DNA from: Planctomycetota bacterium
Lineage (GTDB): Bacteria > Planctomycetota > MHYJ01 > WSZJ01
Length of the DNA stretch: 32,716 bases
Assembly (NCBI GenBank): GCA_038060895.1
Contig: JBBTCT010000010.1
Location: 56,733 to 89,448, forward strand
Direction: 5' to 3'
Under the pieces are notes generated by a model. The model did no database searches and had not been told where the DNA came from. It worked only from the letters and a program-made list of their open reading frames with translations. Each line of letters starts with the position of its first letter. Position 1 is the stretch's first letter. The translations under genes and the position numbers were made by a program. Positions 1,118 to 27,373 of this stretch are shown here, in pieces.

Positions 1118-4100
1118 ATGCGCCGGATGCCGTCCCTGGACATGGTGTGCCTCTGGTCCCTTGCTGCGATCCTGACGCTGGCACCCTTTGCGCTTTATCG
1201 GGCGCGCCACCGTTTCGGGAGCATGCCGCTCTGGGTCTGGGTGGGCGGTACGTTGATGCTCGGCGACATCGTGTCGATCGCAATCCCGATTCTCCACACC
1301 CGCGTCGCCCTCACTTCGGTCGCACTGTTCCCTTCCCTGCTCTCCATCGCCCTCCTTCTCTACATCCACTCGGGCGTCATCGAGACGCGCCGCTACATCC
1401 TCACCCTTGTCTGCGTCAGCGTCGCCTGGTCCCTCACGTGCGCGCTGATTTACGGGGCGCTGAGGGGCGGAAGAGTCGACCTGTTTGTCGCGGGTCCGAC
1501 CGGGCAGTACGCGGAGCTGGTTCTGATCACGCCGAGAACCATGGTCGCCAGCGCGGCCGCCATGCTCGTCGATCTCTTTCTCCTTCTCATTGCCTGGCAA
1601 TGGCTGCAGAACAACACGCGGCTCCCGTTCGGCGCCAGGGCTTTCCTGTCGCTGGGGCTGACCCTGTTCGCGGATTCAACGCTGTTCGTCTTCGGCGCGT
1701 TCTGGCCCGCGGATTTCGTCCCCTCCCTCTACGCCGGGCACCTCCTCGGCAAGGGCATCGCCGCCGCGGCCAATGCCCTCCTCGTCGCCGCTTATGTCGG
1801 CTTCATCGAACCGCGCGCAAAACAGCCCGAGGCACGCGGAACGCTCGACATCCTGCGGGTGAAGGAACGGCTCGAACGGGTCGAACGCGCCCTCGAGACT
1901 TCCGAACAGCGCTACCGGCAGCTCTTCGAGAACATCCTCGACGCGGTCGTGGTGATCCGGCAGGGGCGCATTTTCGACATGAACCGGCGCGCGGAAGCGC
2001 TGTTCGGAATGACGAGGGAGGATCTGAAAGTCGCGAGCGCGAGCGAGCTGGGGCTGCCGGCGGTCACGGAGTCATTTGAAGTGGCGAAGTTGAGGATGAA
2101 AGACGGACGTGAAGTGACGGTGGAGGCAGCGGGCGTTTCGATGGACATCGAGGGGGCCGAGGCCCGTCTGATCACGGTCCGCGACATTTCGGACCGCGAA
2201 CGCGCGGCGGCGCTCATCCGGCGCAAGAACCGGGAACTCGAGGCGTTGAATTCGGTGGCCGAGCTCGGGATCCGGAACGCGGCGTTGCAGGACGTGATGA
2301 ACGAGGCGGTCAAGCTGGTGCAGGGGTTGACGGGCACCGATTCGGTGGCGCTGTGCCTGTCGTCAGAGGACGGGAAGTCGTTGACGCTGGCGGCCGCGAC
2401 CGGGATGTCCGACGAGTTGAAAAACAAGGTGGGGGAAATCCGATTCGGGCTGCTCTGGAAGGTGTTCCAGTCGGGCCAGGCGCTGGTGGAGAATGACCTG
2501 CCGGGACGATCGGAGGCGCGGCGGGACCTGATGGAGAACGGAGTCGTCGTTCATGCGACGAGTGCGGCGCCGATCCAGTCGCGCGGCCGGACGATCGGGA
2601 CGCTTTCGGCTTGCTCGTACAAGCCCCGGACCTTCGCAGCGGAAGATGCCGCGCTCCTGGGAACCCTGGGCGCCCAGCTGGGCGCAGTCGTCGATAACGC
2701 ACGGCTGATCGACGCGCAGCGGGACCAGACGGAAGTCAGCGAAATCCTGCTTGCCGCGGCGACGGCGTTCGGCCGTTCGCGCACCGTGGAGGACCTGGCC
2801 GACGCGCTCCTCGAAGCCGCAACCCTGGCTTCCGGCCAGCCGGGAGTTTCCCTCCTGATTTACGACGATGAGCGGGACCTTCTGAAGTTGACGGCACTCG
2901 CCGGCATGCCGGATGAAGCGAAGAAACTGCTGCTGGGAAGAACCTGGGGGCCGAAGAACGAACCGACGCGCCAGTTGCGCGAGGGCCGTGCGACGCTGGT
3001 ACTGACACGCGAGGAAATGCGCAAGTACGATGCCGCGGCCGTCGATGTCGCGGCCCCCGCCGCGACGGTGTTCGTTCCGCTCTTTCAGCAGGAACAGTTC
3101 ATGGGTGCGATCGCCGTAAATTTCAACGACCCGCTCTGCATCGACGGGAGGACCCTTTCCCTGCTCGAGGGAATCGCCGGCCTGTGCGCCGCTTCCCTCT
3201 CGAACCTGAACCTCTGGGGCATCGCCGAGCGGCGCGCAAATCTCGGCGCGGCGCTCCTCTCCGCCGGCCAGGCGCTCGCTTCGGCGCGGGCCCCCGAGCA
3301 GGTCACCAGGGACGCTGCGGCGCTCGCCCGAAGCACGCTCAGGACGGAGGCCGCATGGGTCTGGACGGCTGCGGGCGGGAGGTTCCGTTCCGAGTCGCGC
3401 TCAGGCGGTCTGGCAGACCTCGAGGGACGCGTCCTTGAAGGAAACGAGCTCTTCGGCGGCAAGCTCCTTGACGGCGGGGGCGCCGTGGCGCTGGCGGACT
3501 CGCACGCACAGGACGCTTCCGCAGAATCCCGCGCGACGGCCCGGTTGCTGGGGGCCCGAAGCGCGCTGGCGGTTCCCCTCCGGGTCGGCGAACGCGTGCT
3601 TGGCGCGATTGCCGTCGGGGATGCCGCGCCGCGTCAATTCGTGCGTGAGGACGTGACGGCGCTCGAGACGCTGGCGACCTACACGGCGGTCTGCCTTGAA
3701 AACGCACGGCTCCTGCAGGACCTCTCGCTCTCGAACGAGGAAATCCGGGACGCGCAGGCGCAGATCGTGCGCGCCGAATCGCTCGCGGCGATCGGAAGGC
3801 TGTCGGCTGCGATCGCGCACGAAGTGCGAAATCCGCTCTCCGGGATCTCGGCGGCTGCACAGGCCCTTCTGAAATCCGTCGGCCAGTCCGGCGCCCTCGC
3901 TTCGGACGTACAGTTGCTCAACATCATCGACCGGGAATCGAAGCGACTGAACCGGATCATCACGGACTTCCTCCAGTTCGCGAGGCCCCGCACGCCGGCG
4001 TTGCGGCGGGTCGCCGTTCCCGCCCTCGTTGATTCGACCCTGGGCCTTCTTGAAAAGGACATGGCGGGACGATTCAAGGTTGAACGCGAATTCTCCGCCG

Positions 4101-4489
4101 AGCTGCCGGCGGCCCACGCGGACGGCGACCAGCTCAAACAGGTGATGCTGAACCTCATCCTGAACTCCATGCAGGCGATGCCGGCGGGCGGAACACTGTC
4201 GGTGCGCGCCCGGCCGGCGGAATTGCCCGCAGGACCCGCAGTCGAGATTTCGGTCCAGGACACGGGCCCGGGCATCCCGTCGGGCGACCTCCCGCGAGTT
4301 TTTGAGCCGTTTTTCTCGACCAAGAAGGAAGGCACGGGGCTGGGACTCGCGATCGCGCACCAGATCGTGCAGTCCCACAACGGGGTCATTACGGCGCACG
4401 GCTCCCCGTCCGGCGGCGCCCTCATCCGGGTCCTTCTTCCCGCTTCGCCGTCCCCCGCCCCCGTGGTTCAGGGAATGCGCGAGGCGTGA
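1118..4489 (+). CDS. Membrane sensor histidine kinase (VUT/YhhQ-like TM domain, PAS, three GAF, HisKA, HATPase)
   Basis: H-box AIAHEVRNPL, N-box QVMLNLILNS, G1 DTGPGI, F-box VFEPFFSTK, G2 GTGLGL; PAS (YRQLFENILDAVVV...VRDISDR); GAF ends such as AVVDNARL and CLENARL; ~230-aa hydrophobic N-terminus. True start may be ATG 1127. Confidence 0.93.
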   Translation: MRRMPSLDMVCLWSLAAILTLAPFALYRARHRFGSMPLWVWVGGTLMLGDIVSIAIPILHTRVALTSVALFPSLLSIALLLYIHSGVIETRRYILTLVCVSVAWSLTCALIYGALRGGRVDLFVAGPTGQYAELVLITPRTMVASAAAMLVDLFLLLIAWQWLQNNTRLPFGARAFLSLGLTLFADSTLFVFGAFWPADFVPSLYAGHLLGKGIAAAANALLVAAYVGFIEPRAKQPEARGTLDILRVKERLERVERALETSEQRYRQLFENILDAVVVIRQGRIFDMNRRAEALFGMTREDLKVASASELGLPAVTESFEVAKLRMKDGREVTVEAAGVSMDIEGAEARLITVRDISDRERAAALIRRKNRELEALNSVAELGIRNAALQDVMNEAVKLVQGLTGTDSVALCLSSEDGKSLTLAAATGMSDELKNKVGEIRFGLLWKVFQSGQALVENDLPGRSEARRDLMENGVVVHATSAAPIQSRGRTIGTLSACSYKPRTFAAEDAALLGTLGAQLGAVVDNARLIDAQRDQTEVSEILLAAATAFGRSRTVEDLADALLEAATLASGQPGVSLLIYDDERDLLKLTALAGMPDEAKKLLLGRTWGPKNEPTRQLREGRATLVLTREEMRKYDAAAVDVAAPAATVFVPLFQQEQFMGAIAVNFNDPLCIDGRTLSLLEGIAGLCAASLSNLNLWGIAERRANLGAALLSAGQALASARAPEQVTRDAAALARSTLRTEAAWVWTAAGGRFRSESRSGGLADLEGRVLEGNELFGGKLLDGGGAVALADSHAQDASAESRATARLLGARSALAVPLRVGERVLGAIAVGDAAPRQFVREDVTALETLATYTAVCLENARLLQDLSLSNEEIRDAQAQIVRAESLAAIGRLSAAIAHEVRNPLSGISAAAQALLKSVGQSGALASDVQLLNIIDRESKRLNRIITDFLQFARPRTPALRRVAVPALVDSTLGLLEKDMAGRFKVEREFSAELPAAHADGDQLKQVMLNLILNSMQAMPAGGTLSVRARPAELPAGPAVEISVQDTGPGIPSGDLPRVFEPFFSTKKEGTGLGLAIAHQIVQSHNGVITAHGSPSGGALIRVLLPASPSPAPVVQGMREA

Positions 4490-5511
4490 AGCCCCGGCAG
4501 GAATTCCCCGGCGCGGCGAATGACGGCGTTCCAGTCCACGGCCGCGAGGAACAGCACGGCCCATCCGCCGAAATCGATGCCCATCAGGGCGCCGATGCCG
4601 GCGTGAAACAAGGCGGCGCCGGCGAGAAGCGCGTACTGACCGGCGCGCGGCAGCACGAAGAGGAGCGCAAAACCGAGTTCCAGGAAGAGCGTGGCCCAGG
4701 AGAGTGCGACGCAGAGAGCGCGTGAGGAGCCGACCGCGCGGCCGGTAGGAGTGGACATCGTGGAATTCGCGATTCGCTCGATGCCCCAGGGATCGCGGAA
4801 TCTCGCTTCCGCCGGCGCCTCGCGGTCGGCGACAAAAAACTGCGTCGAGTCCCCCAGCCGCTTCTTGCCCGCGGTGCCCTGCAGGTACCACTGGAGAGTC
4901 CGGCCCGTGAGCCAGTCGCCGCCGGCCCAGCGCAGCTTGGCGACGCCCGCTGAGACATAAATGAGCGCGGCGGCGGCCAGAATCAGATGAACGGGCCAGA
5001 CCACGGCTGGACGGCCCGCAAGCCGTTCCGCCCAGGCGAACTTCTCGCCGCGCCTTCGGGACCGCCAGGCTTCCAGAAGCGCGTCTACCGACCAGGCCTT
5101 GACCCCGGGAGCGAAGGCGAGCACGAAGAGGGCCAGGGACGGGAGGATGCTGGCGTGCGCGACGTAGACCCACGAGCTGTGCCAGGAGCGGAGGGCGAAG
5201 TTGACGAGGGCCAGTGCGAGGAGTGAGAAGCGCGTGCCGACGCCTAGCAGGGCAAGCGGCGCCAGGATCCAGGCGAAACCCCGCAGGACTGCGAGGGTCT
5301 CGGCGGGTTCCCACGAGGCGGGGATAATCGGAGGGAGCCAGCGGTACCCGGCCGACGGAACTTCCAGACCCAATGGCCGACGCAGCAGGACATCGAGGGC
5401 AGGAAGAAAGTCGAGGAAGTCCCCGATGAACCACGCGCACAGGAAGATCCGGAATGCCCCGATGGAGTGGCGATTCGTCGTCGCGAACCAGAAGGAGGTC
5501 CAGCGCTTCAT
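4468..5511 (-). CDS. HTTM-domain membrane protein (vitamin K-dependent carboxylase/SdpB-like)
   Basis: Multi-TM; patterns IGAFRI, ALLGVGTR, AWSVDA, IYVSAGVAKL....DWLTG, ATLFLELGF, FHAGIGALMGIDF typical of HTTM proteins. Overlaps the kinase tail-to-tail by 22 bp. Confidence 0.75.
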   Translation of the reverse strand: MKRWTSFWFATTNRHSIGAFRIFLCAWFIGDFLDFLPALDVLLRRPLGLEVPSAGYRWLPPIIPASWEPAETLAVLRGFAWILAPLALLGVGTRFSLLALALVNFALRSWHSSWVYVAHASILPSLALFVLAFAPGVKAWSVDALLEAWRSRRRGEKFAWAERLAGRPAVVWPVHLILAAAALIYVSAGVAKLRWAGGDWLTGRTLQWYLQGTAGKKRLGDSTQFFVADREAPAEARFRDPWGIERIANSTMSTPTGRAVGSSRALCVALSWATLFLELGFALLFVLPRAGQYALLAGAALFHAGIGALMGIDFGGWAVLFLAAVDWNAVIRRAGEFLPGLHASRIP

Positions 5512-6407
5512 CGCGCTCTCCGGAATCGCTCTTCACGGGCGTCCCATGATCCGCATGTGACTCGCTCGACGGCGTTTCCCGCCTCGCGGACCACTTCAAG
5601 CCGGATCGCGACGGTTCCGGGCGCGAGAGCGTCCCGGTTGCGGGCTTCCCCGGCGAAGAGCGTGAAGAACCCCGACATCCGCTCCTCGAATTTCGCGGGA
5701 GTGTCTGCGGCGACGGCGCCGTACTCGTATGCAGGATCCGTTGAGCCGTAGTATTTCGCGAAGAAGACGCGCTTCAGCCGCAGCTCGGGAATTCCACACG
5801 CATCGGAGGGGATCTCGCGCTCTCTTCCCCGGTCGTCGACCGCGATAAACCGGAACGAGTAGCGGGCTCCGTCAGGCTCGACGTGGTTGGCAAACATGGG
5901 GAGGCAGGTCAGGGGCCAGCTCTCGACGCGGAGAACTGTTCCCGCAGCCGCGACGCCGAGAACGGCGCAGATCAGGAGGCTTGCGAACGCCTTGTGGAGG
6001 ATCGTCGGTTCCCCGATCCGGCAGGCCAGCACGGTCTTCCTGTGATCTGCGACCCACCGGTAAGCAGCACTCCCCGGGATGGAAACTCCCGGCAGGTGCA
6101 TCAGCGCCCCGAGCCAGCAGGTCAGCGGCCACCGGAGCATCAGAAATCGCACCGCCTCGAATCCCGCGAGCGTGCGCCCCCCGCCGGCGACGTGAATGGC
6201 GCGCTCCAGATCCTCGCGCTTCAACCCGGGATGGTCCGCCGCCACCCCTTCTTCCTGGTTCGGCCTCCACCGGAATCGGCCGAGCCAGTCGAGCCGCTCC
6301 CCGTAACAGCGCGTCGCTTCACAGATCCCGCAGTCCCCGTCGTAGATCACGTCATAGCGGGTTGTCCGCGACGGGCTGGAGGCAGGCGAGTCGGGTGCAG
6401 GTTTCAT
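5508..6407 (-). CDS. DCC1-like (DUF393) thiol-disulfide oxidoreductase fused to a TM helix and C-terminal domain
   Basis: VIYDGDCGIC, LAGFEA and AYRWVADHR are DCC-family motifs; then a TM segment and WPLTCLPMFA. Stop overlaps the HTTM start (ATGA). Start chosen at ATG 6407. Confidence 0.82.
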   Translation of the reverse strand: MKPAPDSPASSPSRTTRYDVIYDGDCGICEATRCYGERLDWLGRFRWRPNQEEGVAADHPGLKREDLERAIHVAGGGRTLAGFEAVRFLMLRWPLTCWLGALMHLPGVSIPGSAAYRWVADHRKTVLACRIGEPTILHKAFASLLICAVLGVAAAGTVLRVESWPLTCLPMFANHVEPDGARYSFRFIAVDDRGREREIPSDACGIPELRLKRVFFAKYYGSTDPAYEYGAVAADTPAKFEERMSGFFTLFAGEARNRDALAPGTVAIRLEVVREAGNAVERVTCGSWDAREERFRRAR

Positions 6408-6500
6408 GGGACGCGCCTGACACCATGGCCGGAACAAAGCGCGAGGTCAAGCACGCGGCCTCCGGGAGACCGCGCGCGCGCCTTGCCCTCGTTGCCGCTG

Positions 6501-12550: not shown

Positions 12551-12972
12551 CGCTTGAGAAGGATCGTCGTGTAGACCTCGGACTGGTCCTTCCCGGCCTT
12601 TTTCCAGCGAATGGTGACGACCGCCTCGATTTCGTTCATGCCGACCTGCTTGAAAGTGACGTCGTAGGTGTAGCCGTCGAATGAAGCGTGGGTCTTGCCG
12701 ACCATGTTCGTGAGCACCCCGGGGTTGGGGACCTGTTCGAGCTCGGCGAGCACGGTGTAGGCCAGCTGCGCGGAGTTCTGGGAGGCGACCGCTCGGCGGT
12801 GGGAAGCGGAAGCGGCGCCGAAGAGGGCGAAGACGGAGACGAGGGAGACGATGAGGATGAGGAGGGCGATGAGGATTTCGAGGAGCGTGAAGCCGGAGTC
12901 GCGGCGGGGGTTGGGGGCGGAGTTCACGGGGAGAGGATACACGGGGAGTCGGTGGAGGTGCAGCCGACTCAT
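12547..12972 (-). CDS. Minor (pseudo)pilin, GspI/PilV-like
   Basis: Class III signal RRDSG|FTLLEILIALLIL; short globular domain ending in beta strands. Start may be GTG 12927. Confidence 0.82.
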   Translation of the reverse strand: MSRLHLHRLPVYPLPVNSAPNPRRDSGFTLLEILIALLILIVSLVSVFALFGAASASHRRAVASQNSAQLAYTVLAELEQVPNPGVLTNMVGKTHASFDGYTYDVTFKQVGMNEIEAVVTIRWKKAGKDQSEVYTTILLKR

Positions 12973-14009
12973 GGATTCTGGTCATCCTTGAAGGCCGGGA
13001 CACCGACCACCGTCGTGAACGTCTCGCCCCACCGGAGCCGCGCGCCGGACTTGTGGGTCGCGCGCGTCGTCCCGCGAAGCCCGCGCTTCACGCCTGTCAG
13101 CGCGCCCGAGGATTTTGTTTCGTAGGACATCCACTCGTCTTCGATCTTCACGAAGCCGGGCCCTTCCGGGAATCCGCGCAACAGGTCGGCGGAAAGCGTC
13201 CCGGAGTTCTTGTCGATGTCGGCGTTCAGCTTGGAGACGGCCTGGCCCGATCCCAGCGGCCGTTCGAGCGTCAGCGTGATCTCGACACGGTGGGGCAGGA
13301 TGTCGTCCAGCGGATCGTTCGCCACCATCGCGGCACGCTTCATCGAAAACTCCGTGTCCCGGCAGCGCGTCGAATCCCAGCGCAGTTCGGGACCCGGCTC
13401 GCCGCCGGTGGGATTCCAGGTCATTGTTTTCTGCGACCAGAAGCGCAGGCCGAGGTAGATCACGCCGTCTGAGAGCAACTGGACGTTCTGCGCGATCCAG
13501 TCTGTCCGCTCGAACGGCTCCAGCGGCATCTTCATGCCGTAGTCCGCGTTGAAGTCGAACCGGCCGCGATAGAGTTTTCCGGAATTGCCGTCCGGGTCGA
13601 AACAGTAGACGACCTCGTACCTTTTCATCGTGTCCGCCGCGGCGAAGAACGTGACGTCCTTGTCCTTGTAGTTGTTGGGCGCCGCCTGGAGTCCTTGCGC
13701 GGGGACAAGGCCGACGCGCGTGAAGAACAGTAGGATGCGACCGTGTTTGTCGGGGAGGCACGTGAAGTTCGGGTTGATCCCCCCCGGGTCGGCCTCGTGG
13801 TGAATCGTCGAGCAGGACAGATCGGCGCGAAGAGTGTCGAACAGGATGGAAGCGCGCTCGTAGGCGTCGCGCCGGGTTTCGCCGCGGTCCCAGATCTCGA
13901 CGCCGGAGCGCAGGAGGCCGACGAGCAGGAGCCCGAGGAGAATGAAGATGGAGATGGAGACGAGGAGCTCCATCAGGGTAAAGCCCGCAGATCGACGGAA
14001 GAGGGGCAT
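12969..14009 (-). CDS. Minor (pseudo)pilin, GspJ/PilW-like, with an inserted RG..GT..H module
   Basis: RRSAG|FTLMELLVSISI, long helix to LRADL, LPHRVEITLTL near the C-terminus, then the ~65-aa module. Confidence 0.82.
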   Translation of the reverse strand: MPLFRRSAGFTLMELLVSISIFILLGLLLVGLLRSGVEIWDRGETRRDAYERASILFDTLRADLSCSTIHHEADPGGINPNFTCLPDKHGRILLFFTRVGLVPAQGLQAAPNNYKDKDVTFFAAADTMKRYEVVYCFDPDGNSGKLYRGRFDFNADYGMKMPLEPFERTDWIAQNVQLLSDGVIYLGLRFWSQKTMTWNPTGGEPGPELRWDSTRCRDTEFSMKRAAMVANDPLDDILPHRVEITLTLERPLGSGQAVSKLNADIDKNSGTLSADLLRGFPEGPGFVKIEDEWMSYETKSSGALTGVKRGLRGTTRATHKSGARLRWGETFTTVVGVPAFKDDQNP

Positions 14010-14150: not shown

Positions 14151-17100
14151 TCACTTCTCTTCATGCCGATGCACCACATTCTCCTGCTCATAATCCACCT
14201 CAAACCCCCGGAACTGCGGGCTTTCCTTCCACTGCCCTTTCACGTAGGCGCCATCGACGTACTCGAACATCACCCGCACGTCGAGCTGGTCCCCGACCGT
14301 CTCTCCGAGCTTGCCGCCCTTCTCGTCGTCGAACTCATGGAAACGCAGGATCCCCTCTTTCTTCGCCTTCTTGATCGCCTTCTCGTCGAGCGGCATGTGG
14401 ATCCATCTCCCGCTCCGGTCGAAGCGCACAAAGACGCGGATGTCGACCGAAGCGCCGCTGAACATCTCTTCCCACTTGATCGACTTCCAGCGCGCCCCCG
14501 TCGCCCGTGTCGTGGCCTCGAACCAGTGAAGGTCCGTGTCGTCGGCGGCGCGGGTGAAGCGGTCGTAATAGCGCCAGGGCATCGCGTAGAGCAGCGCGTC
14601 ACCCTGGTGGGACTCGGGACGAGTGCCGAACGCGCCGCGGAAATTGCATCCCGGAGGTGCCTTGAGCCAGTTGTAGGCGCGTTTCGTCCAGCCGACCAGC
14701 TCCTGGTCCACCAGGAAGTATCCCTCTTCGGGGAAACCGTGACTGTCGGCGACTTCGAAGAGATCCTCGCTCGTTTCGACGCCTTTCACCAGCGCCGCGA
14801 TCGCCAGCGCCGTCAGCGGGAACGCGATGCTGCACTTGGAGTGCGGTCGCGGCGTCGTGCCGAGATATCCGCGCTTCAGCCCCTTCAATTGCCGCTTCAT
14901 CGGGTCGTACTCGACGTACCCGATGAGTTCATCGTCGACGAGGATGGCGCCGCCGTGCTGGTCGAGGGCTTTGTAGATCACGGGCGTCTCCGTGGGTTCG
15001 GGCGGCTTGACGGGCGGAGGAGTGTATGAGCCCGGGTCGGTCGGCGGGATCCAGGGGATGTCGATCGGCGGCGGCGGGATGCCGCAGCAGTCATCGGGGA
15101 GGCGGACGCCGAAAATCAATTCGGTTTCGGTGGCGTCGAGGGCCTTCGCCAGACACCAGTGTTCGTACTCCGCGGTCGTGCACCGCAGTTCATCGATCCA
15201 GCCGCCGAGTTCCTGCGGAGCCGTGTCCTGCGCGGAAACGCCGATGCGAAGCGGCGCGGGATCGCTGTAAGGCAGCTCGCCTGACGGAAACTTGATGACC
15301 CGGGAGTACCGGCGGATGTTGAAGCGGCCCCACGACGAGGGATTGGACCTGTTGAAGGGCGGGTCGGCGACGACCTCGTCGTTGACCTTACGATCCAGGC
15401 CGGCGAGGAGGAAGGGCCACTCGGTCGTTGTGAAGACGGACAGGAGGGCAAGCGGCTTGAGCGGGGTTTTACCGCCTTCGAGCCAGACCGAGCACGCGAT
15501 CGTGGCTGCCTCGCGCTTGTCGTAATCCTTCTGAAGCAGCGTCACCGGGTCGCCCCTTCCAGCCTTGGCGTCCTCGAGGGCGAAAGTCGGGAGCACGGGT
15601 GCCGCTGCGGGGTGGGCGTCGTCCGTGGAAGAAGGGCCCCAGGAATCTCCGCGCAGCAATTGGGCCGGGACGCGCTGATTGTTGAAGTATCCCCCGAAGG
15701 CGATCCATCCGTCCGCGCCGACCTTCTGAACCGGTCCGATGAATTCGTTCCCGATGCAGAGAACCGTCGTGTCAGGGAACCCCGCGTTCGTTGTCACGTG
15801 GAAGCCGACGAGTTCGACGACCTCCCCGACGAAATGGTCGCGGTCCACCGTTTCGAACTGTCCGCGTGCAATTCCCGTGAACTGGTTCTTGTCGTGGCCG
15901 GTGTAGTGGACTATCTCGCGAGGATCCGCATTTCCGATTCGAAGCCACCCCTGGTCGGGGAATCCGGCCGCGCCGCCGGTCGAGACGCTGAGGATCATTT
16001 CCCCCTTGGCGAAGCCGACTTTCGGCGGGTCCGTTGGAGCCGGTCCCCCGACGTTCGTCATGGATTGCGGGACCGAGCCGACCGGGAATTTGAGCGCTCC
16101 CGCGTATTGCGGAATCCTGTCCCACTTGAGCGTCAGCCCGGTGAGGCCGGCCGGCGTGTAATCGAGCTTCGCCTCGACAACGTGGTCCGTGTACCCCCAC
16201 GGGGCGATCGTCTCGCCCGCCTGGTGATCCCACTTCATCGAGCCTCGCGCCCCGCGCGTGACCCCGTTGAACGATTTCCCGATCGCCGTCTGGTACTCGA
16301 TCACCTCCTGACCGAGCGTGATCGCGCCGGGGGAGGAGAAGTGCCCGACATCCACGTCGGAGTCGATTGAAATGCTCTCCTTGCTCAGGCTGTTGGAGAG
16401 GCGAACCGCGACGCCCAACTCCTTGTCCTCCTGCTGCGCCGGACCCTGCCTCACGCAACGCCAGTCGCCGACCGGCAGGCCGTCCAGCATCAGCATCATT
16501 CCGCCGTTGCGCGTGCTCTTCCAGAAGGCCCCCACGTGGTACCACTTCTTCGCAGTCAGCTGCACGCGGTGCACGATTTGCGAGAAGCCCTGCTCCAGCG
16601 TCGCGTCCTTCACGAGCAGCCGCAGGTAAGGCCCGCCCATCGCGCCGTCCGTCCCCTCGTACGTCAGGAGAATCCGGTTCGACCACTCCTCGTCCCCCGC
16701 CTCGAAAATCGTCGCGTCCTTCTCCGGCGCCTGGAACCAGAACTCCGTCGCGCCCGGCGACCAGCAGACGATCTGGCCCTTCTGGAAGGGCGGCAGCCCG
16801 GAGAAGGTCATTCCCTCCTTCACCGCCTTCCCCTCGTTATCGGGGCCGAACTGCATCGACGTCTCCCAGCCCGCGCGCTTGTCGACGCCGGTCACGCCGG
16901 TGAACCACGCGCCGCGCGTGCGTTCCCGAAGAGGCCACTCGTACGGAAACGCCGGGCCCGTGAAGATGCCGCGCGCCATGCCGCGACCCAGCACGTTCGT
17001 GAAGTCCTCCTGGCTGACGCAGCGCCACTTGAGCGTTCCTGCAGGCGCGACTTCGACAATCTCGCGGACGTCGCACTCGCCGCCGACCGTGCGGTTCGGG

Positions 17101-18140
17101 CGCTCCAGCTGGCCGCGCGCGGCGACCGTGACCAGGTTCCACGACTGAAGCGTGAAGGGCATCGTCCCGGTGCACGCGAGCTCGTAGTCGGTTGGCCACT
17201 TTGCGTTGAGCGCGATCGCCGCGTAGTCGTAGCCGCTGATGACGTTCAGCTCAAGCTGGTCGGAGAGGAAGTCGTAGAAGTCTTCCCACTTTTCGAACGT
17301 CTTCGAGACCATCGCGTTCGCCAGCTGCGTCGCCTCGTTGCGCGTGACCCGGTCGTCGGCGACGTGGGCTCGCAGCGCCAGCCCCTCGAAGCAGGCGGCC
17401 AGCGCTTCGCGGCTCGCCGTGTTGATGTTGAGCGGGTGGCGCTGCTCGATTTCCAGGAGCGCATCGACCTCCGCGGCCTCGGGCGCGCCCTTGAGCCCGA
17501 ACATGCGGAACTTCGTGTCGATGTCGAGGACCTCGGCGACCTGGACGTATTTCGCGCTGGAGATCCTGACGCGGATCCCTGGGGAGATATGCTTCATGTC
17601 GTCCAGGGCGAAGCGGACGAGGCCTTTCTGGCTCTGGTCGTCGTGGGCCCAGCGGATCGTCTGGGGAGCGATCCAGGCCGCGGGCCGCCCGCTCGCTTCC
17701 GTGAGGTAGTCGCGCACGTCGTCGACTCGCGGGTCGATGCGCTTCATGAGATTGTCGATGCACAGCTGCGTTGCGGTCCGGATGTTGATTTTCCCCTGCT
17801 CGTCGGCGACGAGCGCGCCTGTGTCGAGGCCGGGGGCCATCGGCTTGCCGGCGCGGCCGGAGGAAAATTCGTTCGGAGTGTCGCAGAAGGGCGTGTTGGA
17901 CGGGACGGGCGCGTTCTTGCGTTCTTCCATGCCCTCCCACCCCGGCACGACGGCGGCGATGGCGCGGTTGCGGGCGGCCGTGGCAGCGAAGCGGGCGTGG
18001 ACGCGGTCGTTGACGCCACGGGCGCCCTTTTCCTGCTGTCCCATGGAGAAGCAGAACGGCAGGGCGATGGCGGCGAGCAGGGCGGCGATGACGACGACGA
18101 GGATGAGAGCCATGCCGCGGTTGTGAGGACGGAGGCGCAC
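14151..18140 (-). CDS. Giant GspK/PilX-like pilin, paralogue 2 (~1330 aa; LamG plus five repeat modules)
   Basis: HNRG|MALILVVVI (no Glu5, as in K-type pilins), DEQGKINI and LNINTAS GspK motifs, LamG motifs WYHVGAFW and GWIDELR. Start GTG 18140 or TTG 18158. Confidence 0.8.
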   Translation of the reverse strand: MRLRPHNRGMALILVVVIAALLAAIALPFCFSMGQQEKGARGVNDRVHARFAATAARNRAIAAVVPGWEGMEERKNAPVPSNTPFCDTPNEFSSGRAGKPMAPGLDTGALVADEQGKINIRTATQLCIDNLMKRIDPRVDDVRDYLTEASGRPAAWIAPQTIRWAHDDQSQKGLVRFALDDMKHISPGIRVRISSAKYVQVAEVLDIDTKFRMFGLKGAPEAAEVDALLEIEQRHPLNINTASREALAACFEGLALRAHVADDRVTRNEATQLANAMVSKTFEKWEDFYDFLSDQLELNVISGYDYAAIALNAKWPTDYELACTGTMPFTLQSWNLVTVAARGQLERPNRTVGGECDVREIVEVAPAGTLKWRCVSQEDFTNVLGRGMARGIFTGPAFPYEWPLRERTRGAWFTGVTGVDKRAGWETSMQFGPDNEGKAVKEGMTFSGLPPFQKGQIVCWSPGATEFWFQAPEKDATIFEAGDEEWSNRILLTYEGTDGAMGGPYLRLLVKDATLEQGFSQIVHRVQLTAKKWYHVGAFWKSTRNGGMMLMLDGLPVGDWRCVRQGPAQQEDKELGVAVRLSNSLSKESISIDSDVDVGHFSSPGAITLGQEVIEYQTAIGKSFNGVTRGARGSMKWDHQAGETIAPWGYTDHVVEAKLDYTPAGLTGLTLKWDRIPQYAGALKFPVGSVPQSMTNVGGPAPTDPPKVGFAKGEMILSVSTGGAAGFPDQGWLRIGNADPREIVHYTGHDKNQFTGIARGQFETVDRDHFVGEVVELVGFHVTTNAGFPDTTVLCIGNEFIGPVQKVGADGWIAFGGYFNNQRVPAQLLRGDSWGPSSTDDAHPAAAPVLPTFALEDAKAGRGDPVTLLQKDYDKREAATIACSVWLEGGKTPLKPLALLSVFTTTEWPFLLAGLDRKVNDEVVADPPFNRSNPSSWGRFNIRRYSRVIKFPSGELPYSDPAPLRIGVSAQDTAPQELGGWIDELRCTTAEYEHWCLAKALDATETELIFGVRLPDDCCGIPPPPIDIPWIPPTDPGSYTPPPVKPPEPTETPVIYKALDQHGGAILVDDELIGYVEYDPMKRQLKGLKRGYLGTTPRPHSKCSIAFPLTALAIAALVKGVETSEDLFEVADSHGFPEEGYFLVDQELVGWTKRAYNWLKAPPGCNFRGAFGTRPESHQGDALLYAMPWRYYDRFTRAADDTDLHWFEATTRATGARWKSIKWEEMFSGASVDIRVFVRFDRSGRWIHMPLDEKAIKKAKKEGILRFHEFDDEKGGKLGETVGDQLDVRVMFEYVDGAYVKGQWKESPQFRGFEVDYEQENVVHRHEEK

Positions 18141-18283
18141 GAACGGGGTGTAAAGCAAACGGCGGGCCGGAGTTAGGGGAGGAGTAGGGGCTGAAACGGG
18201 GGGAAATCGAGGTCTGCGGTGAGGAGGCGGGGCGCGGCGTTGACGGATGTAGCGGAAGTTTACGACTGAGAGGTGTGTTGAGA

Positions 18284-18500: not shown

Positions 18501-21500
18501 CTATTTCTCCTCGTGATAGTGAATCACCGGCTCCTGCTCATACTCCACCACCAGCCCCCTGAACTGCGCACAGTCCTTCCACTCCCCGTTCGCGAACGCA
18601 TTGTCCAGCCACACGAAGTCGACGCGGACATCAATCCCGTCCCCCTTCGTGTTTCCGAGCACGCCGCCCGTCGGCGCATCGAACAGCCAGATCCCCCCGC
18701 CCTTCCCCGCCACGTACGGCCTGTTCGTCGGCACGTTCGCCCAGCGCGGCTCGGAGTTCAGACGCACGCGCACCTGGATGTCGAGAAGAGCGTTCGGGAG
18801 GAGTTCTTCCCAGGTGACTCTTCCCCATTTCGCGCCCGTCGCGCGGTGGGAAGCGCCGAACCAGGAGGTCTGGGAGTCGTCGGCGTTGGCGGTGAAGCGG
18901 TCGTAGTAGCGGAAGGGGAAGGCGTAGACGAGTTCGTACTGGTTGTGCGTGGCCGCGACGGTGCCGAACGCGCCGCGGAAATCGCAGCCATCGGGCATCG
19001 TGGGGAAGCCGGAGCCGTTGAAGGTGGTGTAGCCGATGAGTTCGGTGCCGACATAAGCGTAGCCTTCCTGCGGGAAGGCATTCGGAGCGCAGGGAATCGA
19101 CTTGTCGGCGGCGCCCATGGGGGCGGTGAGCGAGGCGATGGCGAGGAACGCCATGTTGAAGACGCGGTCCCCGAGCTCATGGACCGCCGCGGTCGTGCCG
19201 AGATAGCCGCGCGTGCAGTTCGTCAGGGTGTTGGTCCCCGCGTCGAACCCCGCGTAACCGATGATCTCGTCGCCGACCAGGATCGCGCCGCCCTCGGGGT
19301 CCATCCCGCCGACGGTGGCCATCGGAATGGTGACGACCGTGGCGTCGATCGGCGCCGACATCTGGAAGCCCAGGTTCTTCGGGCCGTTCGTCAGGCGCAT
19401 TTCATCCAGAAGCCCGCTGAAGCCCGCCGGCGCGGTCGGGATCGTCGAACCGGCAAACGTGATCAGCTGCTGCGGCACGCCCATCAGCTCGCCTGACGGA
19501 AACTTCAGGATGCGAACCCAGAGGTTGTCCGGTACCCACTCCTTCGCAGTGAAGGACGATAGCGAAGCGAGATGGAACGCCGGGGTTGCCGTTCCGATCC
19601 CGAGATTCGGGACCCACCGCACGTGCTTGATGAGCCGCTCTTCCCGCGTCGCCGGATCCTGTTCCACGAACGTCACCGTATCGCCGTCCCCTGCCTGCTG
19701 GTCTGCGAGCCCGAACGTCGGGTAGACGTTGGAGGCCGTGGCATGCGAAGCATTGAGCGTCCCGAAGAGATTCCCGGCCACGCCCGGCTGCTTGCCGCGG
19801 AACATTGGCACGGGAACCGTCATGCCGTTGCGCTGGATCACGAAGCCGCGCCACCCGTCCGTTCCTTCCTTCATCACGGGCCCGAACCACTCGTCGTCGA
19901 TGGCCAGCACCGTCGGCGTCAGGTAATTCGCGTTGGAGGTGACATGGAAGCCCCAGAGCTGCACGGTCTCGCCATCAAAGTGGTTCTTGTCCGTCGTGCC
20001 GAACAGGCCGCGCGTGAGCCCCGTGAACTGCGTCACGGAACGTCCCGTGTAGTGCATCACTTCGCCCTGCAGGCCGCTTCCGACCATCAGCCATCCGGTC
20101 GGCGGGAATTCGACGGTGATGTCGGGAGCGCCGGAAACGGGAGTCGCGACGGTCAGCATCGCGGCCGCCATCGGGAAGCCGACGGCGGGGGGCGTGGCCG
20201 GCGTGGACGTCACGACCCAGGTTGAAGTGTTCGCGCCGATCTGCCCGACGGTCTGCCCGCCGCCGACGGTGAGGCGATCCCACGTGATCGTCGGCACCGA
20301 CGGATTGGTGAACGACAGCGTCCCCGCGGCGAGCTTCGACGTGTATCCCCAGATGTTGACCCCGCAACCCAGCTGGTGCGCCTGCGCCGCCGTGCCGCGC
20401 GCGCCGCGGATGCAGCCCGTGAACGTGCTCCCGCTGACCGCCGTGTATTCGATGGCTTCGTTCCCGATCTCGATGGCGCCGGTCGCAGGGAACCCGGCGG
20501 TCGATCCGGCGCAGGTCACCGTGGTGTCGGTCGGAATCAGCGCCGTCGCCAGCGTGGTCGAGCGGATCTGCCCTGTTTCCGTACGGATCTGGTACTTCCC
20601 CACCGGCAGGCCGTCGAGCGTCATGAACCCGTGGCCGAACTTCGTACCTTTCCAGAAGGCGCCGAAGTGATACCAGCGGTCGGCCACCAGCGTGACGGTG
20701 TGGACGCATTCCGCCCAGGTGTGCTCGAGCGTCGAGTCCTTGATGCTGAACCGCAGCGCATTGCCTCCTGCAACGGGGTCGGGGCCGTAGGAGAAAAAGA
20801 GCCTGTTGCTCCACTCCTCTGTCCCCGCGTCGAAAATCGTGAAGCTGGTGCTCGACGTCTTCACCCAAACCTCCGCGGCGCCCGCTTCGATGTCGACGTT
20901 GCCGCTCACGATTTCCAGGATCGTCGCAGCGCGCTGCTGGACGGCGCCCTTGGCTGTCGAAACGCCGGAGATTGTGTTGTCGTAGTGGTTCATGATCTTC
21001 CAGTCGGCGCGTTCGTCACGGCCGAGCTTTGTCGTGACCCACGCCGGCACGCTCCGGTCGGTGGAAGGCACTTCCCGGTTCGCGACGCACGCGGGCCAGG
21101 TGACGACGAAGCGTCCCTGGGGAATGCGCAGCATGCGTTCGAAGTCATACTGCGATTTCACGCGCCACCGGAGAGTCCCCGCGGGAGCGAGTTCCACGAC
21201 CTCGCGAAGATCGGAGAGAGCGGAGACCGCGCGGCTCGGAAGGTCCTGCACCCCCTGCGCGACCACGGTGACGTAATTATCGGAAGCAAACGTAAAGGGC
21301 ATCGTCCCCGTCCCCTCCAGCCGCTTCGCGTTCGGGTTCGCGAAATTGATGATGATCGCGACCTCGTCGTTCTGGGTGATCACCGCCAGGCCGCGCTGCT
21401 CCTTGAGGAATTCGACGAACTCCTCGTACGACAGGAACTTCTTCCGGATGATCGCCGCGGCGAGGTTGTCGGCTTCTGCCTTCGTGATCACGTCCTCGGT

Positions 21501-22310
21501 CAGCTTGTTGCGCAGCCCGAGGCCTTCGAGGCACGAAGCGATGACCAGGGCGCTGGCGGTGTTCAGGTTGACCGGGTGGCGGACTTCCAGTTCAAGAAGT
21601 GCGCCGACCTGCGAATCGCTCTCCCCGATGCCGGTGACGGTCACGTCGTTCCCGTTGTCGCTGACGTCGTCCACGACGCCGTACTGCGGCACTCCGGCCC
21701 AGGTCACGCGAACCCGCGCGCCCTCGCCGTAGGAACTTGCGTCATCGACATAGAGCGTCAGGGCCGCGCCGCCGGTCGTCGCGGTCGAAGGCACGACGCC
21801 CCGGATCGTCTGCGCCGCGCCGTACGCAGTCGGCCGCCCGTTCCAGCGAGTGATGTAGTCGCGCAGGTCCTGCGTCCGCTCGTCGACGCGCGCCTTGATG
21901 CGATCCAGAAGCCGCGTCGGCGCCGTCCGTTCATTCACCTTGCCCTGCTCGTCCTGAAGCGACGAGCTCCTCAGCCGGCCCGAGCCGTCCTGCATTTCGA
22001 GCGATGCCACTGAACCGGTCCAGTTGACCGTGAATTCGTCGAGTCCGTCGGTAAAGGGCGAGTTGAACGGCGCGGTAGCGCCCCTTCCCTCCTCCGTCGT
22101 CTCGTGCCCGCGGAGAACGCCGGCCAGCGCGTGATTCCGCCCCGCGAGCGACGCATAACGCGCCTGCGCCCGGTCCATCCCCCCCTGCGCGCCCTTCTCC
22201 TGGTGCCTCATCGAGATTGCGAACGGAATCGCGATCGCCATGAGCGCGACCGAGACGACGACCACCATGATGAGCGCGAATCCGCGGCGCTTCGAACGGG
22301 AAGCGATCAT
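18501..22310 (-). CDS. Giant GspK/PilX-like pilin, paralogue 1 (1269 aa; LamG plus five repeat modules)
   Basis: ATG 22310 overlaps the upstream stop (ATGA); KRRG|FALIMVVVV (no Glu5), DEQGKVN, VNLNTAS, WYHFGAFW, FSGLLDEMRL; collinear with paralogue 2 to the shared HEEK C-terminus. Confidence 0.82.
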   Translation of the reverse strand: MIASRSKRRGFALIMVVVVSVALMAIAIPFAISMRHQEKGAQGGMDRAQARYASLAGRNHALAGVLRGHETTEEGRGATAPFNSPFTDGLDEFTVNWTGSVASLEMQDGSGRLRSSSLQDEQGKVNERTAPTRLLDRIKARVDERTQDLRDYITRWNGRPTAYGAAQTIRGVVPSTATTGGAALTLYVDDASSYGEGARVRVTWAGVPQYGVVDDVSDNGNDVTVTGIGESDSQVGALLELEVRHPVNLNTASALVIASCLEGLGLRNKLTEDVITKAEADNLAAAIIRKKFLSYEEFVEFLKEQRGLAVITQNDEVAIIINFANPNAKRLEGTGTMPFTFASDNYVTVVAQGVQDLPSRAVSALSDLREVVELAPAGTLRWRVKSQYDFERMLRIPQGRFVVTWPACVANREVPSTDRSVPAWVTTKLGRDERADWKIMNHYDNTISGVSTAKGAVQQRAATILEIVSGNVDIEAGAAEVWVKTSSTSFTIFDAGTEEWSNRLFFSYGPDPVAGGNALRFSIKDSTLEHTWAECVHTVTLVADRWYHFGAFWKGTKFGHGFMTLDGLPVGKYQIRTETGQIRSTTLATALIPTDTTVTCAGSTAGFPATGAIEIGNEAIEYTAVSGSTFTGCIRGARGTAAQAHQLGCGVNIWGYTSKLAAGTLSFTNPSVPTITWDRLTVGGGQTVGQIGANTSTWVVTSTPATPPAVGFPMAAAMLTVATPVSGAPDITVEFPPTGWLMVGSGLQGEVMHYTGRSVTQFTGLTRGLFGTTDKNHFDGETVQLWGFHVTSNANYLTPTVLAIDDEWFGPVMKEGTDGWRGFVIQRNGMTVPVPMFRGKQPGVAGNLFGTLNASHATASNVYPTFGLADQQAGDGDTVTFVEQDPATREERLIKHVRWVPNLGIGTATPAFHLASLSSFTAKEWVPDNLWVRILKFPSGELMGVPQQLITFAGSTIPTAPAGFSGLLDEMRLTNGPKNLGFQMSAPIDATVVTIPMATVGGMDPEGGAILVGDEIIGYAGFDAGTNTLTNCTRGYLGTTAAVHELGDRVFNMAFLAIASLTAPMGAADKSIPCAPNAFPQEGYAYVGTELIGYTTFNGSGFPTMPDGCDFRGAFGTVAATHNQYELVYAFPFRYYDRFTANADDSQTSWFGASHRATGAKWGRVTWEELLPNALLDIQVRVRLNSEPRWANVPTNRPYVAGKGGGIWLFDAPTGGVLGNTKGDGIDVRVDFVWLDNAFANGEWKDCAQFRGLVVEYEQEPVIHYHEEK

Positions 22311-23266
22311 TGGGAACCCCCGAGCAGGTTGACGGTGACGGAAGCGGAATCGACGGGGCTCTTGATCGTGATGGTGACGGCGGCGGTGTTGATGGCGGGG
22401 TCGAGCGCACCGGTCTCGTCCCAGCGGATTTCCGCGGGGCCCGACACCGTCAGCGGATCGCGCACGATCATCCGCGAGTCCTCGATGAGGGCGTCCACGC
22501 GCACTTCGTCGATCAACCCGTCCAGCGGCATGTCCTTGCTCCCGATCGTGAGGGGTGAGTCGCCCATCGCCAGCGTCGCCTTTCCTGCTTTCCGCGCCAG
22601 CGGGTAGTCGTTGACCAGGATTGTCAGTGAAGCGCCGTCCCAGAGAAGGGCGATCTTCGACCAGCGGGCCTCCGGGATGGCCGCGTCGGACATCGCGATC
22701 GCCACGCGCTGGGCCTCGACACCGACATAAGCCTGCAGAAACCCGGCCTTCGACACCGCGAGCCCGAACTCGCCGCTCTTCTGCACCAGAACCCGGTCCT
22801 TCTTGTGAAGTTTCGGCAAATACCAGATCTCGACGAGCAGGCCCTGGTCCTTCGAGTACATCGCGACGTTCCCGCAGTCGATGAAGCCGCCGGAGTCGGA
22901 AAAGCTCACCGCGCGGCCGACGCGGCCCCCGTCGGCGAGCTTCCCGTTGCTGATCTTCGCAAAATGCCCGAGTGCGCCCGGGGCCAGGTCGTCCTCGAAG
23001 TGCCACGCGGCCATCGGGCGGCGGACCACGGTCGAGACGTACTTTCCTTCAGGGTCGATCTTTACGGCGACCGGCGCCCGCGAGTTCCGCGCTGCGGTGC
23101 GTGCGAAGCGGCAGATTCCCAAAACGGTTGACCTGGTGGCGCGAAGTCCCATGTCCTTGTTCGATTCGGACATCATGGCCATGCCGACGCCGAGGAGGAT
23201 GGCGATGATGCTCATGACGACCATGAGCTCGATTAGAGTCACGCCGAGGGTACGTCGATGGGGCAT
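22307..23266 (-). CDS. Minor (pseudo)pilin, GspH/FimT-like, with LamG domain
   Basis: RRTLG|VTLIELMVV, FARTAA helix motif, LamG motifs AAWHFED, WSKIALLWDG, LDGLIDEVRV, and a GspH-like tail IRWDETG...VTVNLLG. Confidence 0.85.
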   Translation of the reverse strand: MPHRRTLGVTLIELMVVMSIIAILLGVGMAMMSESNKDMGLRATRSTVLGICRFARTAARNSRAPVAVKIDPEGKYVSTVVRRPMAAWHFEDDLAPGALGHFAKISNGKLADGGRVGRAVSFSDSGGFIDCGNVAMYSKDQGLLVEIWYLPKLHKKDRVLVQKSGEFGLAVSKAGFLQAYVGVEAQRVAIAMSDAAIPEARWSKIALLWDGASLTILVNDYPLARKAGKATLAMGDSPLTIGSKDMPLDGLIDEVRVDALIEDSRMIVRDPLTVSGPAEIRWDETGALDPAINTAAVTITIKSPVDSASVTVNLLGGSQ

Positions 23267-26585: not shown

Positions 26586-27373
26586 CTTCCGAAAATGAAT
26601 CCTCCCCCTTCGGTCCCGCCCTTGGCTTCCGGCTTCGCGTCGCTCACCTCAACGCCGCCGACCGCGATCTTCAGCGTCGCTTCAGCCTCGTCGGGCTTCT
26701 CACGCCAGATCTTCGCGCGCGGCACGATGACGAACGCCTCGCGCTGCTGAAGCGCATGCAGAAGCCGCGCAAGCGAGTCGATCGGCCCTTCGACCTCGAA
26801 CACCACCATCGTGCGCCGGACCGCGCCGCTTTCCAGCATTTCGGTGGTGAAGAAGTCGTCCCCATCCTTCGTCGCGCTGATCTGCCGGATCTTGTGGATG
26901 CCCGAGGCGACCGCGCGCCCGAGAACTTTCCTCGCGATCTCGATTTTCGTCAGGAAGAGCGGCAGGTCCTCTTCGGGATTCTTCGGGAACTGCGCTTCGT
27001 TCTCGATGATGATTCCCTGGTCCGACGAGGCCGAGTCGAGCTGCGTCTGCAGCGCGGCGAGCTGGTTTCCGTAAACAACCTTGTCCGCCCCGGCGGGCGC
27101 CGCGGGAGCATTCGACACCTTGTCCAGTTCCGCCACCCGCGCCTTCAGCGCTTCGACCTCTCCCTCCAGCTGCCGGCGCGAGGACGATGAGAGCGCGTTC
27201 CCCTCGCTCGACTTCAGCATCTTCCGGAGCTTCTCCGCCTGGTCGACCGCATCCGAAGTCGAGGACCGCGCAGGCATGGCCCCGCCCACCATGAGGACCA
27301 GCGCAACCGTGAGCATTCCGCCCGCGGCGATCACGAAGGTCCGGTGCGCAGCCCAGTACTGTTTTATTTTCAC
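26582..27373 (-). CDS. PilO/GspM-like alignment protein
   Basis: GTG 27373 overlaps the pilM stop; TM, coiled coil, then ferredoxin-like pattern FEVEGPIDSLARLLHALQ; expected position after pilM/N. Confidence 0.7.
   Translation of the reverse strand: MKIKQYWAAHRTFVIAAGGMLTVALVLMVGGAMPARSSTSDAVDQAEKLRKMLKSSEGNALSSSSRRQLEGEVEALKARVAELDKVSNAPAAPAGADKVVYGNQLAALQTQLDSASSDQGIIIENEAQFPKNPEEDLPLFLTKIEIARKVLGRAVASGIHKIRQISATKDGDDFFTTEMLESGAVRRTMVVFEVEGPIDSLARLLHALQQREAFVIVPRAKIWREKPDEAEATLKIAVGGVEVSDAKPEAKGGTEGGGFIFGR

Follow-up and report, generated by a model that had tools for sequence, protein, structure and literature searches.

Two described families come closest to the protein considered here. 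Pfam Vut_1 (PF02592; COG1738; TCDB 2.A.88) typically comprises stand-alone proteins of about 220-260 amino acids with six transmembrane segments; the canonical members that we sampled have 227-282. In the sections of the YhhQ paper drawn on here, COG1738 is placed in the VUT/energy-coupling factor (ECF) family of TCDB, with six transmembrane segments and a cytoplasmic C-terminus; Escherichia coli YhhQ, given there as the only characterised member, imports the queuosine precursors preQ0 and preQ1, and the family is argued to be heterogeneous in its substrates (PMC5372724). The second family, Pfam PF20973, carries the name VUPS, for vitamin uptake-like sensor, and the transporter-derived sensor design is thus already catalogued and not new. 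Here, we describe a gene of this kind in a stretch of 32,716 nucleotides from a Planctomycetota bacterium (assembly GCA_038060895.1, contig JBBTCT010000010.1, positions 56,733 to 89,448), which is referred to as the window. An open reading frame (ORF) on its forward strand (1118..4489; 1123 amino acids plus stop, open throughout) encodes a large membrane sensor histidine kinase that, judged from its sequence, is a divergent member of the catalogued VUPS family.

The kinase follows the overall plan of VUPS proteins, with an N-terminal membrane domain above the Pfam gathering threshold, then PAS and GAF domains and a kinase output. Its database copy has 1120 amino acids and the same-genus orthologues begin at an equivalent Met-Pro, so the true start is probably the ATG of the second methionine at 1127, which agrees with the start coordinate given in the initial annotation of this DNA. 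The membrane sensor region of seven helices occupies 1133..1807 (amino acids 6-230) and consists, in an AlphaFold2 (AF2) model, of an extra N-terminal helix (6-28) followed by a six-helix core (36-230) that resembles Vut_1 and the S-components of ECF transporters; the Pfam VUPS match covers amino acids 25-227 (1190-1798). The matched part of a PAS domain follows at 1907..2119 (264-334; 38.5 bits for PAS_8, 27.5 for PAS and 22.5 for PAS_9 in a scan of the fragment). Behind it are three GAF domains, the first placed by the best stretches of GAF_2 and GAF (2282..2695, 389-526), the second scoring 35.6 bits with GAF_2 on the fragment (2780..3199, 555-694), and the third 47.5 bits with GAF, 44.5 with GAF_2 and 42.7 with GAF_3 (3287..3703, 724-862). 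The protein ends with a HisKA dimerisation and phospho-acceptor domain (3794..3991, 893-958; 54.9 bits) and a HATPase_c catalytic domain (4121..4444, 1002-1109; 88.1 bits). All domains of this VUPS-PAS-GAF-GAF-GAF-HisKA-HATPase_c layout exceed their Pfam cut-offs, and the kinase boxes are all intact (H box HEVR with His901, N box NSMQA, G1 box DTGPG, G2 box GTGLG). The transmitter core (877-1111) is of the NtrB/AtoS/ZraS type and matches best with AtoS (246 bits) and ZraS (194 bits), but both scores are far too low for the equivalog models (cut-offs 646 and 479 bits), and the sensor architecture differs from that of AtoS and ZraS. Unlike kinases of that type, the gene is not adjoined by a response regulator. 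None of the 69 receiver-domain matches of the genome is on its contig (C10), and the kinase is therefore regarded as an orphan.

The VUPS model scores 67.2 bits on the isolated membrane domain (E 1.9e-18; 62.5 bits on the whole protein, cut-off 27), covering profile positions 6-206 of 206, and a profile search of the genome gives 67.3 bits. Vut_1 is the weaker of the two matches, with E 2.5e-6 and 28.4-28.5 bits at amino acids 70-218 of the domain alone and 24.0 bits on the whole protein (cut-off 27.2). The NCBIfam model for queuosine-precursor transporters, TIGR00697, stays below its cut-off (16.7 vs 50.95 bits); canonical Vut_1 members of the same phylum score 141-191 bits. For a comparison at the level of families, a profile of the sensor domain and its 144 relatives was aligned by HHalign with a profile of E. 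coli YhhQ and 21 Vut_1 proteins (22 rows). A search seeded with YhhQ had returned enterobacterial sequences of 87-100% identity among the matches listed, and Vut_1 was instead sampled from 120 genomes of the phylum, where five of 26 loci were dropped for want of an ORF with a YhhQ match at E <= 1e-5. The two profiles align with a probability of 96.6% and E 4.8e-10 over 167 columns (query 59-236, YhhQ 38-211). By this profile evidence the membrane sensor domain is homologous to the Vut_1/YhhQ transporters, the resemblance being far beyond chance, and the initial annotation was right in recognising a histidine kinase with a VUT/YhhQ-like sensor domain. The segments that it had quoted, LFPSLL (70-75), SGVIETRRYI (85-94), PRTMVASAAAML (139-150), ARAFLSLGLTLFADSTLFVFGAF (173-195) and GHLLGK (207-212), are all inside 1127-1800, and every named motif falls on the matching Vut_1 motif. 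The alternative of a MASE or other known transmembrane sensor is rejected, since VUPS and Vut_1 are the sole Pfam matches at E <= 10 within the first 251 amino acids. A sequence search of solved structures gave no meaningful match for the sensor domain or for E. coli YhhQ; its sole rows, ATP synthase c subunits (E 0.03, 42 residues), were treated as chance.

Both retention and loss are evident at the level of single residues. In the HHalign alignment S145 is matched to a serine present in 22 of 22 Vut_1 rows, R174 and S178 to an arginine and a serine at 95% each, D186-S187 to an aspartate (100%) followed by threonine or serine, and K212 to a lysine (100%). Eight residues are invariant in Vut_1 (G45, D57, G64, S115, W140, D154, K186, and Y198 in E. 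coli YhhQ numbering, used below also for other Vut_1 positions); four of these are kept in the kinase (G86, S145, D186, and K212) and four are lost, with T66, L79, G172, and A224 in their place. The impression that some acidic and polar residues of the family had been replaced is borne out, as the kinase differs from Vut_1 at eight positions where the latter conserves a polar or aromatic residue: D57, the glutamate at position 61, Q123, and D126 correspond to L79, I83, L153, and L156, and W140, T147, Q151, and Y198 to G172, L179, L183, and A224. The ten residues that are near-invariant in VUPS (>= 90%) are all present (G34, G43, F71, L79, Y82, R91, D152, D186, F190, and K212). The charged D152, D186, and K212 are buried in the helices of the predicted model, and D186 and K212 are invariant in Vut_1 too. 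At P72, S145, and S178 the kinase resembles Vut_1 and departs from most VUPS domains.

Searched exhaustively with phmmer, 1.84 billion representative sequences gave 144 relatives of the sensor domain at E <= 1e-3, eight at E <= 1e-10 and one at E <= 1e-30, and a word-index search with residues 1-250 returned two proteins only, the kinase's own copy and one 57% identical. Pfam finds VUPS in 143 of the 144 and Vut_1 as well in 36, and in almost all the domain is N-terminal in a longer protein. Other Pfam families among them are HATPase_c (70), HisKA (51), HisKA_3 (19), GGDEF (36), Response_reg (12), SpoIIE (at least three), EAL (at least two), Sigma54_activat and Pkinase (at least one each), counted among the families listed, so that rarer ones are possibly undercounted. 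Such a variety of attached domains is typical of a sensor module. A FastTree phylogeny was built from 96 rows, namely 22 Vut_1 proteins, the query and 73 of its 144 relatives, every second relative having been taken and the other 71 left out. The branch between VUPS and Vut_1 has 100% support, and the query is placed inside VUPS, grouped at 99% with P0005 and P0006, which are 60% and 47% identical to the kinase over the full length (a third relative, P0004, is 64% identical). When the tree is rooted on Vut_1, the query clade is among about ten early-branching VUPS rows (97% branch support); a basal position is not claimed, given the use of FastTree, the 71 relatives left out and the long-branch joins that were flagged. 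The kinase thus differs from Vut_1/YhhQ in its extra N-terminal helix, its fusion to a kinase, of whose 1123 residues the membrane part makes up only the N-terminal 230, and its separate clade.

Typical VUPS genes are widespread. Eighty loci, retrieved with an alignment of 12 typical members and hence representing typical VUPS rather than the divergent subgroup of this kinase, come from Chloroflexota, Desulfobacterota, Bacteroidota, Proteobacteria, Planctomycetota, Acidobacteriota, and others. In the kinase's own phylum the domain is rare, with a single match to the VUPS model, scoring below the cut-off, in 120 other sampled genomes, 29 of which have canonical Vut_1 transporters. A protein search seeded with the kinase was positive in three of the 40 other genomes covered, with orthologues in two of the seven further members of the genus and a distant relative in one genome of the order.

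The AF2 model of the sensor domain (74 alignment rows) has a mean predicted local distance difference test score (pLDDT) of 92.6 and a predicted template modelling score of 0.90, and a model of E. coli YhhQ (P0149; 25 rows, pLDDT 82.8) served as control. Apart from the first helix of the sensor (6-28), which YhhQ does not have, the order of secondary structure is the same in both models: a helix (sensor 36-55, YhhQ 6-30), a small beta-hairpin (about 57-64, 34-43), two helices (65-85, 44-63; 87-116, 65-91), a short helix (128-134, 99-105) and three further helices (139-166, 108-134; 171-195, 139-163; 201-230, 169-210). Clusters of arginine and lysine in the loops 28-35, 89-92, and 167-174 and beyond residue 230 fit an N-out/C-in topology of seven helices with the PAS domain in the cytoplasm. 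In a structural alignment against representatives, ECF S-components or solitary relatives (PanT, BioY, RibU, ThiT, FolT, CbiM, BtuM, and NikM, the last two of which we take to belong to this class) account for 15 of the top 16 rows, at Z 8.1-10.4, which is below the level deemed safe for helical bundles; 144-173 residues are aligned, over model residues 28-238 and most of each chain, with a root-mean-square deviation of 3.9-5.1 A. All of the top ten matches of the YhhQ control belong to this class too (Z 6.5-9.0). Since such Z values are possible for unrelated helical bundles, the match is read as one of fold class and not of descent, and at a sequence identity of only 6-13% the likeness concerns a possible way of working rather than family membership. 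S-components of ECF transporters are high-affinity binders of small molecules. From these models, the VUPS family appears to have the S-component fold.

We consider it the best explanation, with a probability of roughly 0.6, that the gene encodes an orphan, multi-input kinase in which the VUPS domain acts as a non-transporting cavity receptor for a small ligand. The analysis itself shows the domain identity, the homology to Vut_1, the predicted fold class, a topology consistent with the loop charges, the intact kinase motifs and the orphan status. Beyond this we infer a mode of action in which the VUPS domain would no longer transport, and its inherited binding cavity, with the buried D152, D186, and K212, would bind a small ligand. 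Helix 7 (201-230) would hand the change straight to the cytoplasmic PAS/GAF chain, which would set the autophosphorylation of His901, and phosphotransfer would then take place to a response regulator encoded elsewhere.

Several results weigh against this explanation. Eleven residues that are common in VUPS domains (70-82%) are replaced in the kinase, namely Q (74%) by L46, Q (70%) by G49, S (70%) by A64, P (77%) by L65, G (82%) by T66, E (70%) by S85, G (70%) by T96, N (79%) by S101, T (70%) by A146, Y (79%) by W160, and E (71%) by Q161, so the cavity may be altered or non-functional. D186 and K212 are both missing from P0006, a more distant member of the subgroup that has the same architecture. 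The four cytoplasmic sensor domains (PAS and three GAF) could be the true input. On the structural side, Foldseek with the sensor model found nothing in the PDB at E <= 0.001 (best E 0.3), its weak top rows being S-components, and a Z of 8-10 in the fold search is in the range where unrelated helical bundles can score. The genome is 86.5% complete, and a partner gene may be among the parts not assembled. A literature search, with subscription journals outside its coverage, found no VUPS ligand and no paper on VUPS, and nothing relevant on YhhQ or COG1738 as a sensor or histidine kinase or on vitamin uptake transporters in signal transduction.

Some of these points speak for the most serious alternative, which we regard as possible though unlikely: that in this subgroup the VUPS domain is mainly a membrane anchor, or senses the state of the membrane or a partner protein, and that the real inputs are the PAS and the three GAF domains. 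The eleven replacements, the loss of D186 and K212 in P0006 despite its 47% identity and unchanged architecture, and the presence of four cytoplasmic sensor domains all favour it. So does a VUPS score that is low for the family, 67 bits vs 177 for one typical member tabulated, which is due to the eleven replacements and to the Vut_1-like residues that were kept. It is harder to reconcile with the retention of all ten near-invariant residues, including the buried charges D152, D186, and K212, which would be costly in a mere anchor. The same-genus orthologues are also 55-57% identical in the membrane domain and 60-64% over the whole protein, values similar enough to indicate that the membrane domain is under comparable constraint.

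A different proposal accepts the cavity and goes further, and we hold it to be improbable. The VUPS subgroup of this genus would have kept a working Vut_1-like cavity, with P72, S145, S178, D186, and K212, and would serve as a receptor for an exogenous vitamin- or nucleobase-like micronutrient, possibly a deazapurine, coupled to gene expression through the orphan kinase.

Very improbable in our view is the narrower form that goes back to the initial annotation, in which the domain would act as receptor of preQ0, preQ1, queuine or some other deazapurine or nucleobase and would be functionally tied to the adjoining tRNA/TadA unit. This compact unit is upstream of the kinase on the opposite strand (68-1058). 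A promoter-like site (TTGACA, 16-nt spacer, TAAGAT; 1058-1031) comes first, followed by tRNA-Arg(ACG) (966-890) and a long hairpin (897-770; -119.5 kcal/mol, z -16.2) whose 60-nt arms are 85% complementary. Next in order are a gene for a TadA-type deaminase (ORF 918-274, which probably starts near 711), another hairpin (262-153) with 48-nt arms of 90% complementarity, and tRNA-Ser(CGA) (155-68). The two hairpins could be processing sites of the RNase III type or insertions resembling repetitive extragenic palindromes or miniature inverted-repeat transposable elements. The tRNA-Arg(ACG) is TadA's own substrate. TadA makes inosine and not queuosine. As stated in the parts of the YhhQ paper used here, queuosine is found in the tRNAs for Asp, Asn, His, and Tyr, and not in those for Arg or Ser (PMC5372724).

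What recommends a deazapurine ligand is, apart from homology to a family whose one characterised member carries preQ0 and preQ1, the retention of the Vut_1-invariant D186 and K212 together with P72, S145, and S178, which are absent from most VUPS domains. The tRNA-Arg(ACG)/TadA/tRNA-Ser unit also precedes the kinase in each of the three kinase-bearing genomes of the genus, and the kinase is the sole Vut_1 match in its own genome (86.5% complete), where no canonical Vut_1 transporter was found. These points are outweighed by the eight replaced polar or aromatic positions, the low TIGR00697 score, the argued heterogeneity of COG1738 in substrate (in the same parts of that paper; PMC5372724) and the nature of the TadA product and of the two tRNAs. 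The genomic context is equally unlike that of queuosine-precursor transporters. Rfam detects no riboswitch at positions 1-1500, and so no preQ1 riboswitch, and no queuosine gene is present among the ORFs of the window that were scanned. In the fetched flanks of the 80 typical loci, which amount to 1.23 Mb and hold 4041 ORFs of >= 70 amino acids, phmmer with QueA, QueC, QueF, TGT, TadA, and YhhQ gave no match at E <= 1e-2 in any locus, and all spiked positive controls were recovered, TGT being run without one. Seven of the 80 loci have tRNAs (10 genes in 1.23 Mb), which is no enrichment, and none has a tRNA-Arg(ACG). In two of them tRNAs precede the VUPS gene at a distance of no more than about 0.5-0.75 kb, tRNA-Ser and tRNA-Pro in L065 (5132-5310) and tRNA-Ser in L080 (9382-9470).

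The organism's own gene content points the same way. Its genome has QueC, QueF, and two QueA-like genes (contigs C1, C14, C16, and C22), and it therefore probably makes preQ1 itself. One of the QueA matches sits in an open frame of 583 amino acids. TGT (PF01702) was not found in the assembly, a gap that is not evidence of absence at 86.5% completeness. The tRNA-Ser/TadA/tRNA-Arg neighbourhood recurs only with the two same-genus orthologues, and a more distant VUPS gene in the genome G010 has a different gene context. As it is confined to one genus, the arrangement is read as synteny and not as functional linkage. Both the deazapurine ligand and the tie to the tRNA unit that the initial annotation had suggested are accordingly left unsupported.

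Least likely of all is a transceptor, with a domain that has stayed active in transport after its fusion to the kinase and signals as it carries its substrate: the six-helix core and order of elements shared with the YhhQ model and the retained D186 and K212 would suit it, but most polar Vut_1 residues are gone, an extra N-terminal helix is present in the model, the VUPS clade stands apart from the transporters with 100% branch support, and 143 of 144 relatives match VUPS, almost all of them as longer proteins in which the domain is N-terminal.

Downstream of the cavity-receptor candidate the genes are on the opposite strand. Two of them, one for a membrane protein with an HTTM domain (4468-5511) and one for a DCC1-like thiol-disulfide oxidoreductase (5508-6437), converge on the kinase and are followed by a gene for a CT398-like zinc-ribbon protein, rpoD and dnaG. 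The HTTM and DCC1-like genes overlap by 4 bases, and the 3' end of the HTTM gene overlaps that of the kinase by 22 bases. Farther along the window are two very long ORFs on the reverse strand (14151-18158, 1335 amino acids; 18501-23006, 1501 amino acids), neither with a Pfam match at E <= 1e-5. A neighbouring gene (12969-14009) encodes a prepilin-type N-terminal methylation motif, and the two ORFs are upstream of a TPR gene (24129-26585), a PilM-like gene (27370-28968) and an FHA gene (29108-31138). Possibly these genes form a cluster related to pili or secretion, with giant proteins.

For the family, these results describe VUPS as a widespread membrane sensor module with a predicted S-component-like fold and a buried Asp/Asp/Lys set, from which the concrete hypothesis of a cavity-binding receptor for small molecules follows. 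The gene studied here adds little to this hypothesis, being a divergent member in a phylum where VUPS is rare. Should the micronutrient proposal be true, however, the kinase would be the first VUPS receptor of transporter origin to have a defined ligand, and this would give the whole family a function.

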